Shown one piece after another: positions 26,318 to 30,826 of a DNA stretch of 64,000 nt. How positions within the stretch are numbered: position 1 is the first letter of the stretch; every line of letters begins with the position of its first letter. The stretch lies in the NCBI GenBank assembly GCA_000182565.2, contig KQ257466.1; one strand, given 5' to 3'. Below the pieces are notes generated by a model that had not been told where the DNA came from, did no database searches, and was given only the letters and a program-made list of their open reading frames with translations. The DNA is from Spizellomyces punctatus DAOM BR117. Its lineage: Eukaryota. A program made the position numbers and the translations under genes.

Positions 26318-27394
26318 TTATGATTTCAACTGCGCCAACCGCTTCATTAACGCATCCGATTCATCCTCTCTTTGGACAGATTGGGTTGCGTCCAATCGTG
26401 TCCGCGGTACTTGAGCAGCCTAAAAATCCAGGAAAAACCAGGGTTATTACCATTCAATCCTTTTCGTCCCATTTTTTTTTTGAAATATGGGTTATGCGAA
26501 CAAAAAAGAATTTGTTTACCTTTGTTGTTAGATCCAATCCAATTTCATCAAAGACGGCGTTCATGATGTTTTGTGATTCTTCTTGATCACCCTCTTCGTC
26601 CATCATTGAATCTAGGACGTCGTTTACTGGGGATAATGACACCAGTAAGTCACAAAAAAACATTAATGAACATGGATGGGCTTTTTGTAAAAACTCACTC
26701 ATGTCATCCTTCATATCCATCTTTGTATTCTCTTCCCCAAATTGCATCATGGTTTTCTGTAATTGTCCTAAATCGGTAGCCTTGTTTGATGCCGCCATGA
26801 CACGGGTAGCCGAACTCATTGCCTTGGCTGTGGCTGCTTGTGAGGCCATCGTCTACCAAGTAATCTATCAGCATCTATGCAAAAAAGATCGGCACATTTC
26901 TCATCTTGCTTACAGTCGCTTTGACTCGGAGTCCTCCAACCTGGGCATTGACACGGGTGTTTTTTTCAATGTGCTTTCGAAGCTGGAGGAGTTGTTTTGC
27001 TAGGGTTTTTGCTTCGGCTGTTCGCCCTTGTTTTGCAGCCTTTTTGATGTCCGCGATCTGTTATGGTGAATGCAGCGTGAGAAACGTTGCTGGAAAGATA
27101 GTTTCCAACACTCTCTAGCCTCCCATCGATAACCACCGTTTGCAGCAGTTACGGTAATACATCTCCCACCCCTCGTTTTGCTATGTGCCGAAAAATACTC
27201 ACAATCTGCTTCTCTTGGCGCTCCAATCCGCTACGATCTTTCCCCAGCTCTCGCTGAATGGTCCGTACTTCGCGACTGGTTGCCCGTACCTGATCTATTT
27301 CCAGTCAGCATATAAGTATTCCCATTGCAAAAAGACTTGGCAGGAAACACGGCAGCAGACCTTTTACATTCGGCTTTTTTTGTAGCAAATTCAT
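26318..27394 (-). CDS. CHMP2B: ESCRT-III Snf7-family protein, CHMP2B/Vps2-like, multi-exon
   Basis: Exons DQVRATSREVRTIQRELGKDRSGLERQEKQI, IADIKKAAKQG, KTMMQFGEENTKMDMKDDM, QNIMNAVFDEIGLDL; C-terminal MIM-like DALMKRLAQLKS*. Confidence 0.85.
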
Positions 27395-27600
27395 TATGGT
27401 TGTGTTTTGAAGAGTGAGTGAAATAAAGTGCACTCAGTCCATGCAAGCAGGTGGAATGATGTCAAGAAAAGCTTGGCAAGTGGTTCCGAGGTTGACCCTC
27501 AAATATCCCTAGGATCTGTGATGACGATGCTTACATAATGCCCCGTTTTCGCACACATCACACCAGTATTGAGAAAATAAAACGAGTTCAAAGGATAACA

Positions 27601-27630
27601 TAGTGCGGAGCCGATGGGTATTGGCCCTAG
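27601..27630 (+). repeat. Left terminal inverted repeat (including TA)
   Basis: TAGTGCGGAGCCGATGGGTATTGGCCCTAG, preceded by CA, giving CATA at 27599-27602. Confidence 0.93.
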
Positions 27631-27728
27631 TGCAATGATTCCAACCAATTTAATCATAATTTTACTCGATTTAGGCAAATGAACTATGGTGCGATGCATA
27701 AAAGATGCTCCACCATTGAAAAACGGGT

Positions 27729-27773
27729 CCAATATGTGCGGGAATTTTCGCAGTTGCCACATTTCTATATAAA
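27729..27773 (+). promoter_or_regulatory. Putative Pol II promoter of the Fanzor gene
   Basis: CCAAT at 27729-27733 and TATATAAA at 27766-27773, then a pyrimidine-rich leader up to the ATG at 27843. Confidence 0.5.
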
Positions 27774-27842
27774 CCCCTCCACTATCGTCTCTCCCTGCCC
27801 ATTTTCCCAGGCTTTCTTTCATCTTTTTCCACAGATATCATC

Positions 27843-29759
27843 ATGCCGCCAAAGAAGAAGCAAAAGCTTGAAAGGCTCAAAAAACTCGACAAACCCACCT
27901 TACATACCTGCAACAAGACGTCCTTTGCAAAGGCTTTCTTGCCTAATGAGACCTACCGGCAGCGTCTTCTAGATTACATCGCCATCATCCATCAACTCGC
28001 TGACCATGCTTCCCACGCTCTCAAATTCTACATCCTCTCTACATCCACATCGTCTTTCCCGGTTGTTCACGAAGATACAATCGAAGCCATTCTCTATCTT
28101 CTCAACAAGGGGGAGGCTTGGCATCCAAGAAAGGAAGCAAAGAAGGCATGGCGGGATTGTTTGTTGCCATATGTTCAACGGTACTGCCAAATCGTCGGCT
28201 TCATTCATCCAAATCTACGAGGCGAGCAGCAGTCAATTAATTACCTGACAGTGAGTATGATGACGAACCTGAAAGTCAACGTTCAAGAGCATTTCATGCA
28301 GATGCTGCTCCGGTACATTAATCTGCGGTTCGACGTGAAGGGACAGAAGCAGCGACTGCCACCGAAAAGCGATGCGCGAAAGGCTTTCTTTACTCGGCTA
28401 CGCTACTTGAAGTCGGTTTTCCTTTTTGATGTGGTGCCCGAGTTGGAGTTCCTGGATGACTTGACACCATTGGAGAGCGAGGTTCTTGAAGAGATTTGGT
28501 CATTGGATCTCCCATTCCTTCCTAACGATCCCCTTGCCTACGCCATTGTTGCTGATCCGATGTCATTTTTTCCCGCGTACTGCAAACTCTCTGGGCTGTA
28601 TGAACAATATGGCTTCCAACGGTTCAGTGCGATACCTCTGCGCCGCTCGCTCATTCAAAGTCACGTGCGAATCGACACCATCATCCTGTACCAGCATATC
28701 CTTTGCATCACGCGGCGAGACGCAGAAACTGTCGAAAAGGATGATCTGTGGATGCGCGTCTGCAATCTATGTACCAAGGCTTTTCGGTCTCGCTGTGGTA
28801 TGCATTTTGAAGGCTCAATCACCACGGATGGAGCCTCGGTGTCTGTATACCTAAAGCACCCAGAAGCAGACAAGTATGGAAAGCGCGGAGCGAGAAAGTC
28901 AGCAAACACGGTGGCTGCAGAGGTTAAAGCGCTTTATGTGGAGAACAACTTACCTGCTTGTCGAGCAGCAGAGAATGTCGTCGTTATCGACCCAAACAAG
29001 CGCGACATTCTCTACTGCCAAGACAGCAATGGTACGACATTTCGCTACACCGCCAACCAGCGAGCCGTGGAGACTGGAAGCCGGCGGTTTGCAAAGAGAC
29101 GAGAAGCAATGAAGGAAGAAGCTGGAGTTGATCTCATAGAATCACGAATACCATCCCACAAAACAATGAACCTCATGGACTTCACTCGCTACCTTCTCGT
29201 TCGCCGCGCTGATTGGGATCGTCGCAAGGAATTCTATTCGCATCCTGCTCATACTCGATGGAAATGGCACTCCTTCATAAACCGTCAGAAGAGCGAATCA
29301 GACCTCATAAGTAACATGCGCAACAAGTACGGTGAAAACTTTACTGTTGTGATGGGTGATTGGAGCGACGCTGGTCGAACTGCGAGATTTCAGACCTCAT
29401 CAAAGACAAAAGGCTGGCGCACCCTCTTTAAGCGCAACCGCATTGATTGTTTCCTTCTCGACGAGTACAAGACCTCATCTGTTTGCCCTCGCTGTTCCTC
29501 ATCTGAGTTTGTGGAGAAAAAATTCAAAACACGACCTCATTCAAGACCTTGGCGCCGTCGTGAAGGCAAGATTGAAAAAGTCCACGGACTGCTGGGTTGT
29601 ACCAACCCTAACTGTTTGCAGCAAGCCTGGACATCGGGAATGCGCTACTGGAATCGAGATATGCTGTCAACCTGCAACATGCTATTGATTGTGAGATCAA
29701 TGTTGGATGGACACGGTAGACCAGAAGTGTTCAGCAGGAGTGTTCCAGCCGTAGCGTAG
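27843..29759 (+). CDS. Fz1: Fanzor1: eukaryotic TnpB/Cas12-like RNA-guided DNA endonuclease (638 aa; recalled as SpuFz1)
   Basis: RuvC-I VVVIDPN (D383); VVMGDWS; rearranged RuvC-II LLDEYKTSSVC (E541); Zn finger C548-x2-C551...C586-x4-C591; RuvC-III WNRD (D606); WED-type TDGASVSV; N-terminal NLS PPKKKQK; intronless. Confidence 0.96.
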   Translation: MPPKKKQKLERLKKLDKPTLHTCNKTSFAKAFLPNETYRQRLLDYIAIIHQLADHASHALKFYILSTSTSSFPVVHEDTIEAILYLLNKGEAWHPRKEAKKAWRDCLLPYVQRYCQIVGFIHPNLRGEQQSINYLTVSMMTNLKVNVQEHFMQMLLRYINLRFDVKGQKQRLPPKSDARKAFFTRLRYLKSVFLFDVVPELEFLDDLTPLESEVLEEIWSLDLPFLPNDPLAYAIVADPMSFFPAYCKLSGLYEQYGFQRFSAIPLRRSLIQSHVRIDTIILYQHILCITRRDAETVEKDDLWMRVCNLCTKAFRSRCGMHFEGSITTDGASVSVYLKHPEADKYGKRGARKSANTVAAEVKALYVENNLPACRAAENVVVIDPNKRDILYCQDSNGTTFRYTANQRAVETGSRRFAKRREAMKEEAGVDLIESRIPSHKTMNLMDFTRYLLVRRADWDRRKEFYSHPAHTRWKWHSFINRQKSESDLISNMRNKYGENFTVVMGDWSDAGRTARFQTSSKTKGWRTLFKRNRIDCFLLDEYKTSSVCPRCSSSEFVEKKFKTRPHSRPWRRREGKIEKVHGLLGCTNPNCLQQAWTSGMRYWNRDMLSTCNMLLIVRSMLDGHGRPEVFSRSVPAVA

Positions 29760-29780
29760 AACGTAGATTGGTTAGATTAG

Positions 29781-29870
29781 GTTTTCCGAGCCGGTTGTCG
29801 CGCGGTTCAATCCCTGGTGCGGGTGCTAGTGCCAATACCCACCGGCTCCGCACTATCTATAGGTTATGAA
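29781..29870 (+). ncRNA. omegaRNA: ~75-nt scaffold (29781-29855) plus guide read from flanking host DNA (TCTATAGGTTATGAA...)
   Basis: Lies just downstream of the stop codon and overlaps the right TIR. GAGCCGGT (29788-29795) pairs with ACCGGCTC (29841-29848), enclosing hairpins CGCGCGG/CC-TG-GTGCG and GGGT/ACCC. Location matches the TnpB/Fanzor right-end RNA rule. Exact ends are inferred. Confidence 0.88.
29826..29855 (+). repeat. Right terminal inverted repeat (including TA)
   Basis: CTAGTGCCAATACCCACCGGCTCCGCACTA; two mismatches to the reverse complement of the left TIR. Confidence 0.93.
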
Positions 29871-29977
29871 ATCAAATTACAAATAAATACATCAATGAGA
29901 CGAGTGCCCTGGTGCAAGATCTACCATCTGCACTACTCTTCTCAATAATCTTGCCATTAATTATCTTAGCAGACCAA

Positions 29978-30826
29978 CTATTCCGTTTGCCTTCTTTGGG
30001 CCACAACCGCGGTTGCCTGAGGCATCATATCGGGAAACCATTTCGGCCATACATATCCATACATGACAACCCAAAAAGCCAAGCCTGCAATTGTTCCTGC
30101 AATTTTCTCTTGCCACGTGTGGAAATAAACGCTCGTCGCGATGAGCATCGTGTACCAGAGAAGGAGGAGGAAAATGAGAACGCTGGATAGGATTGCGGTT
30201 GCGTTTGCGTATCGTGGACGGACGACTTGAGGTCTGACTAGGAGTTGAAGTTCTTCGTAAATAAAGAGGGACATGTGGATAAGAATGCTGTAAATGGGAA
30301 AAGGTGAGCCGTGACATTCGTATACCATCATCCAAACCCTGTCAAAATACTCACAAACAATGCCCTGACGTATCAAACCCAATCCACTCTCCCCCATTCC
30401 GAACACAAATCCGTGGATGTCCGTGCCCATCAATGCTGCACGTTCCAGACACTAGTAATACGCGGTCAAATAGCGAATGTCCAAACGCCCACTGAGCAAA
30501 CAACACCCAGTAGCTCGTTGCTGCCGTCCAGCGTATGACGGCACGTCGACGGTATCCCGGTGGCGAGGCAAAGAGGGCAAACAAAAGGAGGGTGACGCCT
30601 GTCCAAAACTGTGCGTAAAAAAGGCTATTGGGTTAGGGGTTTGTCACCACAGGCGCAAAACGACGTGTAGCAACTTTACCCATCCACGCTTGGCAAAGTA
30701 TACATTGAGAGGATTTCGTTTATTCGAGAAGACAGATGGTGGTGGTGGGGCAAAAGTGTGAAGAATGGAGCCAACGAGTACAGTCAAAGAATAGAATAAA
30801 AGGAGGTTTCGTTGGTATCTCTTCAT
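29978..30826 (-). CDS. SCS3: FIT-family (Scs3/FITM2) acyl-CoA diphosphatase, ER membrane protein, multi-exon
   Basis: Family motifs NKRNPLNVYFAKRGW, GFDTSGHC, TSVYFHTWQEK. Confidence 0.88.

Follow-up and report, generated by a model that had tools for sequence, protein, structure and literature searches.

The interval 27601-29870 of a 64-kb stretch of DNA from the chytrid Spizellomyces punctatus DAOM BR117 (contig KQ257466.1; the whole 64-kb stretch is referred to as the window) holds one intact copy of the DNA transposon SPu-1, which carries the gene for the Fanzor1 nuclease SpuFz1 and the sequence of its guide RNA (omegaRNA). Comparison of this sequence with deposited protein chains and with published target DNA indicates, with a probability that we put at about 0.97, that it is the exact locus on which the published biochemistry and cryo-electron microscopy (cryo-EM) of SpuFz1 are based. 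The locus is therefore a known one: the Fanzor family was founded on this element (Bao and Jurka, 2013; PMC3627910), and the locus was characterized between 2023 and 2024. An initial examination of the letters alone, referred to here as the sequence-only reading, had proposed the SpuFz1 identity, credited it to Bao and Jurka (2013) and Saito et al. (2023; PMC10432273), and cautioned that the system was probably not undescribed. Both attributions are correct, and the caution was well placed, as the locus, the RNA, the motif, the catalytic residues and the structure are all in print. Two comparisons on which the identification could have failed, that of the open reading frame (ORF) with deposited SpuFz1 and that of positions 29856-29885 with the published native target, both gave a match, and no evidence contrary to the identification was found.

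Among eukaryotic RNA-guided DNA endonucleases, SpuFz1 was the first for which programmability was shown; its structures have been solved, and a compact genome editor has been engineered from it. This engineering is reportedly still under way in 2026. As a finding, the locus itself adds nothing new. According to the published work, SpuFz1 co-purifies with RNA from the 3' end of the element and binds a transcript of about 90 nt that runs across the right repeat, in which 14-15 nt copied from the flanking DNA pair with a target beside a 5'-CATA motif (Saito et al., 2023). Changing any single base of CATA abolishes cutting. D383, E541 and D606, together with N385 and two Mg ions, form the RuvC site, which cuts both strands of double-stranded DNA, the non-target strand after bases 16-17 and the target strand after bases 20-21, and leaves 5' overhangs; the enzyme shows no robust collateral activity and edits human cells (Saito et al., 2023). 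RNA-guided, motif-dependent cleavage of double-stranded DNA by SpuFz1 is also described by Xu et al. (2024; PMC11423790).

Sequence, homologues and predicted fold of SpuFz1

The SpuFz1 gene occupies 27843-29759 on the plus strand as an uninterrupted, intronless ORF of 638 amino acids with an ATG start, just as the sequence-only reading had described it. In a search of all PDB chains, residues 2-638 were 100% identical to the MBP-SpuFz1 chain of entry 8GKH (8gkh_P; E = 0, 1493 bits), and the same chain sequence is found in entries 9CEU-9CEZ. The identity begins at residue 2 because the MBP tag of the published construct was placed between codons 1 and 2 (Saito et al., 2023). The only other PDB sequence match at E <= 0.01 was Parasitella parasitica Fanzor1 (E = 4.9e-53). 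A pseudogene was considered and rejected, the frame being intact and identical to the active protein.

All of the protein motifs named in the sequence-only reading are present, and the positions that it gave for the RuvC triad are exact. The split triad consists of D383 in VIDPN (motif from residue 381; codon 28989-28991), E541 in LDEYKTS (motif from residue 539; codon 29463-29465) and D606 in NRD (motif from residue 604; codon 29658-29660), all on the plus strand. A motif-position script placed the four cysteines of the CCCC zinc finger, C548, C551, C586 and C591, at 29484-29615 (plus strand). E541 sits seven positions before C548; relocation of the catalytic glutamate to just upstream of the zinc finger is described for Fanzor1 proteins in a 2026 review of OMEGA systems (PMC13565253). 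In the published structure E541, D383, N385 and D606 coordinate two Mg ions, and the CCCC finger is stated (Saito et al., 2023). The same script located the basic N-terminal stretch behind the proposed nuclear localization signal (NLS), PPKKKQK from residue 2, at 27846-27866 on the plus strand. No statement on a native NLS of SpuFz1 was found in the portions of Saito et al. (2023) that were available; NLS-type signals have been tested in other Fanzors (Jiang, 2023; PMC10530073).

A search of a large protein collection returned 48 homologues. Sixteen are named paralogues from S. punctatus DAOM BR117 itself, at 79-87% identity, and since the PDB chain is matched at 100%, the exact match singles out this copy among them. 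Others come from the related chytrids Gaertneriomyces, Fimicolochytrium, Phlyctochytrium and Rhizophlyctis. Individual residues were scored for conservation across an alignment of 24 homologues. D383 is retained in 22, the other two being gaps at this position; E541 and D606 are kept in 20/24 and 19/24, and the zinc-finger cysteines in 20 (C548), 21 (C551), 18 (C586) and 17 (C591) of the 24. Most of the misses are gaps in truncated or short gene models. PF07282 (OrfB_Zn_ribbon) is carried only by the most distant of the 48 matches (P0048).

One of the 48, a partial protein (P0040) 38% identical to SpuFz1 on a 3277-nt contig, is labelled as belonging to a Bacteroidota metagenome-assembled genome. 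A eukaryotic contig that was mis-binned is the likelier source, ahead of a bacterial Fanzor1; should the label hold, the protein would matter for where Fanzor1 arose. Metagenomes yielded 45 loci with relatives of SpuFz1 at 22-59% identity. A group of these (L008-L030) comprises many contigs, the longest reaching 93 kb, with full-length relatives at approximately 24-27% identity, and several near-identical 4.7-kb loci recur among them in different assemblies; this group appears to be a distant Fanzor/TnpB-like clade.

The AlphaFold model of SpuFz1, built on the homologue alignment, has a mean pLDDT of 83.4 and a pTM of 0.75. The sequence-only reading had proposed comparison with TnpB, Cas12 and Fanzor proteins in both sequence and structure; this comparison returned RuvC-type folds, with SpuFz first. 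Searched against the PDB with Foldseek, the model matched the SpuFz structures best (query-normalized template-modelling (TM) score 0.83-0.87), next PpFz and GtFz, and after these Cas12f, Cas12g, Cas12m and Cas12h, and ISFba1 TnpB; 18 of the matches are at E <= 0.001.

Extent and ends of the SPu-1 element

This copy of SPu-1 spans 27601-29855 (2255 bp, about 2.26 kb) and consists of one gene and the omegaRNA between terminal inverted repeats (TIRs). The left (5') and right (3') TIRs, to which no strand is assigned, are each 30 nt long and lie at 27601-27630 and 29826-29855; both were located by an inverted-repeat search and by a pattern search. The former calls arms of 31 nt at 27600-27630 and 29826-29856 that are 94% complementary (29/31 positions), which bears out the 30-bp inverted repeats reported on first inspection. 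With a 25-nt TIR pattern the window gave two matches, which are the two arms, and 100 shuffled sequences gave none. Published descriptions give SPu-1 as approximately 2.1 kb with a single ORF and TIRs of 30-33 bp (Saito et al., 2023; Bao and Jurka, 2013), with 30-nt repeats and a conserved CA upstream of the 5' repeat (Saito et al., 2023), and with TA as the putative target-site duplication (Bao and Jurka, 2013).

Within the element, a non-coding leader of 212 nt (27631-27842, plus strand) precedes the gene. It carries TATATAAA at 27766-27773, 70 nt upstream of the ATG, which on its sequence may be a putative TATA box. The stop codon (29757-29759) is followed by 96 nt to the last base of the right TIR, made up of a 21-nt spacer (29760-29780, plus strand) and the 75-nt omegaRNA scaffold. 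SpuFz1 is the sole long ORF of the interior; the other frames reach at most 129 amino acids from stop to stop and overlap it. No transposase gene was present among the ORFs of the element, so that this copy is non-autonomous; Saito et al. (2023) likewise describe no transposase within the SPu-1 repeats and give the biological role of the nuclease as unknown. No further SPu-1 copies or ghost elements were found in the window by blastn, blastn-short, tblastn or pattern search.

The omegaRNA and its native guide

Saito et al. (2023) published for SPu-1 a 75-nt scaffold, a guide of 14-15 nt, 30-nt repeats and the CATA motif, and named individual omegaRNA residues (U5, C6, C7, U16, G17, U18, C19, G20, G22 and A86). 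If nucleotide 1 is set at 29781, all ten of the checkable labels (10/10) agree with the window. This fit places the scaffold at 29781-29855, with stem-loop 1, a linker and a stem 2 that is closed by an 8-nt loop, and the 15-nt native guide at 29856-29870, both on the plus strand; the guide is copied from the flank directly outside SPu-1. The final 30 nt of the scaffold are the right TIR, and its final two bases, TA, are the putative target-site duplication. The sequence-only reading had pointed to 29781-29870 as the source of a small RNA, and by the published numbering this interval is exactly the scaffold plus the 15-nt guide. Its description of a structured non-coding stretch of about 75 nt between stop codon and right end was accurate as to length (29781-29855 is 75 nt); as to position it needs amendment, in that the stretch includes the right TIR and does not lie only upstream of it.

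The predicted fold of 29781-29870 has two stems, a linker, an 8-nt loop and a single-stranded 3' tail of 15 nt, at -29.6 kcal/mol, a shape that agrees with the published description (Saito et al., 2023). Neither the omegaRNA nor the TIR sequence was detected by blastn-short in the loci of the 45 metagenome relatives, where only 12-nt chance matches were returned (E = 0.37), and terminal repeats comparable to those of SPu-1 were absent from the three best of these loci that have flanks (L002, L003 and L005). With no relative sharing the omegaRNA or the repeats, there is no alignment from which covariation of the omegaRNA could be drawn.

The fit of the numbering and the flank after the right end both link the DNA, in addition to the protein, to the published work. 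In the reagent table of Xu et al. (2024), the SpuFz_TS/NTS target oligonucleotides consist of CATA followed by 30 nt; within the window this 30-nt target has a single occurrence, immediately beyond the right end of the element (29856-29885). The 15-nt guide itself matches within the window only at its own site, at up to two mismatches.

Copy number and transcription

Four sequencing runs were mapped on 27400-30070; these may stem from the strain of the assembly itself and are hence not independent of it. In the DNA run X21 the summed depth rises from approximately 50-63 (left flank) and 16-21 (right flank) to as much as approximately 1390 inside SPu-1, or some 22-28 times the left flank, a rough figure for a chromatin immunoprecipitation (ChIP) library. 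This excess, together with the 16 named paralogues, points to SPu-1 as a multi-copy family, and Saito et al. (2023) count 42 loci, 19 of them full-length, and 134 protein-less 'ghost' loci. A 671-nt contig of run X1 crosses the left junction (27400-27666) with no difference from the window; contigs at the right junction begin 28-30 nt inside SPu-1, just under the 31 letters required for bridging. In two contigs of the DNA run X4 (depth 24.1) and in one RNA read, a joint at 29271-29344 leaves out 72 nt of the Fanzor ORF in frame (24 codons), which would delete roughly residues 477-500; the probable source is a different copy of the family that carries the deletion.

From the RNA run X20, 1159 reads were mapped, 433 of them at least 99% and 726 of them 95-99% alike to the window. 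The depth is greatest over the omegaRNA region (107.6 in 29740-29829), and in the middle of the ORF (28210-29469) it is at most 2.6 per bin and direction. In the omegaRNA region G>A at 29790 marks 124 of 205 plus-strand reads, and upstream of 29777 there is divergence in 141 reads; the majority of the reads here therefore derive from other loci. Native expression of an 88-90-nt RNA from four loci has been reported (Saito et al., 2023).

The X20 reads also differ in direction along the element. Over the 5' part of the ORF (27670-28120) first mates lie almost only on the minus strand, at 16-50 per bin, and over the 3' end and omegaRNA (29560-29830) they lie on the plus strand, at 15-108 per bin. 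Over a neighboring gene of the fat storage-inducing transmembrane (FIT) family, which is on the minus strand, first mates on the minus strand reach 42 and 30, against 1.7 and 0.7 in the other direction. Should first mates be sense in this library, the reads over the 5' part would run antisense to the Fanzor gene; this calibration depends on one gene, and many of the reads derive from other copies.

End anatomy and a possible homing function

The two ends of this copy are arranged in a way that bears on what the nuclease may do for its element. At the left junction the flanking CA (27599-27600) and the first two bases of the left repeat, TA, together form CATA (27599-27602, plus strand), which equals the published target-adjacent motif of SpuFz1. 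At the occupied site, the sequence that precedes the match to the guide is ACTA (29852-29855), not CATA. If TA is indeed the target-site duplication and its two copies collapse into one when the element leaves, the site before insertion or after departure would carry CATA directly ahead of the sequence identical to the guide. Such a site would be a valid target for cutting by SpuFz1, and the occupied site, with the invalid ACTA motif, would be spared; repair from an occupied sister copy would then restore SPu-1, a cycle of restorative homing such as has been shown for bacterial TnpB. With CATA standing before the guide match only on the vacated site, only the empty site would be cleavable, which fits self-homing. 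Self-homing is thus compatible with the end anatomy of this copy, and is not proven by it.

The idea of homing is itself not new. Both Yoon (2023; PMC10711439) and the 2026 review note that Fanzor1 scaffolds take in the 3' copy of the duplicated target bases, and read the 5' copy as part of the motif. We would add a tentative extension, to which we give clearly less than even odds: the conserved CA before SPu-1 copies may be a footprint of the nuclease and not a preference of the transposase. Here only insertions between CA and TA would rebuild CATA on the vacated site, so that only these would be restored by SpuFz1-driven repair and persist. The geometry that the footprint would need is found in this copy: CATA split across the left junction, ACTA at the occupied site, and a guide equal to the right flank. 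If true, this would be a eukaryotic cut-and-paste transposon with a TA duplication that is kept in place by RNA-guided restorative homing, a form of maintenance that is not reported for any Fanzor in the available parts of the discussion of Saito et al. (2023) or of the 2026 review.

Some results are weak points in the reading of the nuclease and its RNA, and others weigh against the homing step or limit it. For the nuclease and its RNA, a Pfam search of SpuFz1 against a local library returned no family at E <= 1, where the protein collection tags the homologues with PF26935, a family evidently outside that library; Rfam gave no match to the omegaRNA at E <= 1. The fold energy of 29781-29870 has z = -1.30, with 19 of 200 shuffles at least as stable, and so does not by itself go beyond chance. 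Transcription in X20 is seen at the level of the family only and is not assignable to this copy. For the homing step, none of the four runs (4/4) has a read or contig that joins 27600 to 29856, as an empty or excised site would give; in these runs DNA reads are only 38 nt long and contigs drop rare forms. TA is present at both ends of the element (27601-27602 and 29854-29855), and from one copy a duplication is indistinguishable from the terminus of a repeat. No transposase is described within the SPu-1 repeats and the role is stated as unknown (Saito et al., 2023), and the 2026 review, in its available parts, lists TnpB and IscB, not Fanzor, as instances of restorative homing by empty-site cleavage.

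Alternative identities and roles

Could the copy in the window be a close paralogue of SpuFz1 and not the characterized locus? The family is large enough for such a confusion, with 19 full-length members among the 42 published loci and 16 named paralogues, yet the named paralogues stand at 79-87% where this ORF is at 100% to the PDB chain. The flank at 29856-29885 is in addition the published native target; its uniqueness was checked in the 64-kb window, and an exact duplicate elsewhere is possible. We regard a paralogue as extremely improbable, and retain the assignment to the characterized SpuFz1 locus.

The role of the nuclease leaves more room for alternatives. SpuFz1 may not be self-homing at all, and may instead act in trans, using guides from the Fz copies and the 134 ghost loci to cut other sites and thereby help other transposons. 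This role was proposed by Saito et al. (2023), who note that no transposase lies within the SPu-1 repeats and that ghost omegaRNAs work with SpuFz1, and the origin of most X20 reads of the omegaRNA region at other loci would suit it. The guide, however, equals the right flank of the element itself, and the left flank supplies the bases that complete CATA, which is the geometry expected of self-homing, and no second match to the guide at up to two mismatches was found in the 64-kb window, a small part of the genome; we consider action in trans a real but minority prospect. A copy that is fixed and no longer mobile, its gene intact and active in vitro but silent or without present function in the fungus, seems to us unlikely, and less probable than action in trans. 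The lack of an excision joint in any of the four runs, the depth of no more than 2.6 per bin and direction over 28210-29469 in X20, and the lack of a known transposase for SPu-1 (Saito et al., 2023) are what such a copy would give, but the ORF and both repeats are intact, with the repeats matching at 29/31 positions, the paralogues retain the catalytic residues, and native 88-90-nt RNA is produced from four loci (Saito et al., 2023).

Comparison with related RNA-guided systems

The closest system is SpuFz1/SPu-1 of S. punctatus DAOM BR117 as published (Bao and Jurka, 2013; Saito et al., 2023; Xu et al., 2024; PDB 8GKH and 9CEU-9CEZ), with which the locus shares the protein, the repeats, the upstream CA, the numbering of the omegaRNA, the guide and target, and the catalytic residues. 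The consensus copy of Bao and Jurka (2013) has 633 amino acids and 33-bp repeats, whereas this copy has 638 amino acids and repeats of 30-31 nt; no other difference was found. The Fanzor1 proteins PpFz1 (PDB 9CF0) and GtFz1 (PDB 9CER) have the fold, the domain order and the relocated glutamate in common with SpuFz1. PpFz1 matches it at E = 4.9e-53 in sequence and with a TM score of 0.75 in fold, and GtFz1 with a TM score of 0.62, but identity in the structural alignments is only 15-22%. The motifs also differ, being ATN for PpFz1, TTAAN for GtFz1 and CATA for SpuFz1 (Saito et al., 2023; Xu et al., 2024), as do the lengths of the omegaRNAs, and PpFz1 has an extra insertion domain (Xu et al., 2024).

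With TnpB of IS200/IS605 elements (for example ISDra2 TnpB) and of IS607, SpuFz1 shares an RNA-guided RuvC nuclease, a CCCC zinc finger and a bilobed architecture (Saito et al., 2023), as well as a guide RNA from the right end, a guide from the flank and a motif at the left boundary; in fold, ISFba1 TnpB matches the model at E = 3.5e-3. In contrast to TnpB, SpuFz1 has the relocated glutamate (PMC13565253), an omegaRNA without a pseudoknot, and larger REC and RuvC domains (Saito et al., 2023), and no TnpB sequence was matched by phmmer at E <= 0.01 or by Pfam. Membership in IS200/IS605 was set aside: SPu-1 has no second gene (no TnpA, the Y1 HUH transposase), its ends are TIRs with a putative TA duplication instead of hairpins without inverted repeats, and the element resembles TnpB in how it works but lies outside IS200/IS605.

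Cas12f, Cas12g and Cas12m share the core RuvC/TNB fold with SpuFz1 (Foldseek E of 6e-5 to 1e-3), and both Cas12 and SpuFz1 carry out RNA-guided cleavage of double-stranded DNA beside a 5' motif. SpuFz1 differs in having one fixed guide per copy and a eukaryotic host, and in the lack of collateral cleavage described for it in print (Saito et al., 2023). A Cas12 assignment was rejected because there is no CRISPR array; a search of 27300-30200 found only four short two-copy families of direct repeats.

Genomic neighborhood

To the left of SPu-1, an exon of the Snf7/ESCRT-III family lies at 26454-26849 on the minus strand (PF03357, E = 3.4e-7, profile positions 78-126 of 171). The match covers residues 2-50 of a 131-residue stop-to-stop frame, as an exon would, which serves as a light check on the intron-rich nature of the genome. 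On the other side, 29978-30433 on the minus strand holds the last exon of the FIT-family gene (PF10261, E = 8.1e-7, profile positions 192-240 of 240), whose stop codon is approximately 120 nt from the right end of the element. Lying between these two exons, SPu-1 is therefore intergenic, just beyond the coding end of the FIT gene. An AATAAA hexamer is present at 29882-29887, 27 nt past the right TIR and outside SPu-1; were it to be used, this copy's mRNA or omegaRNA precursor would terminate in the host flank, and the hexamer could equally be there by chance.

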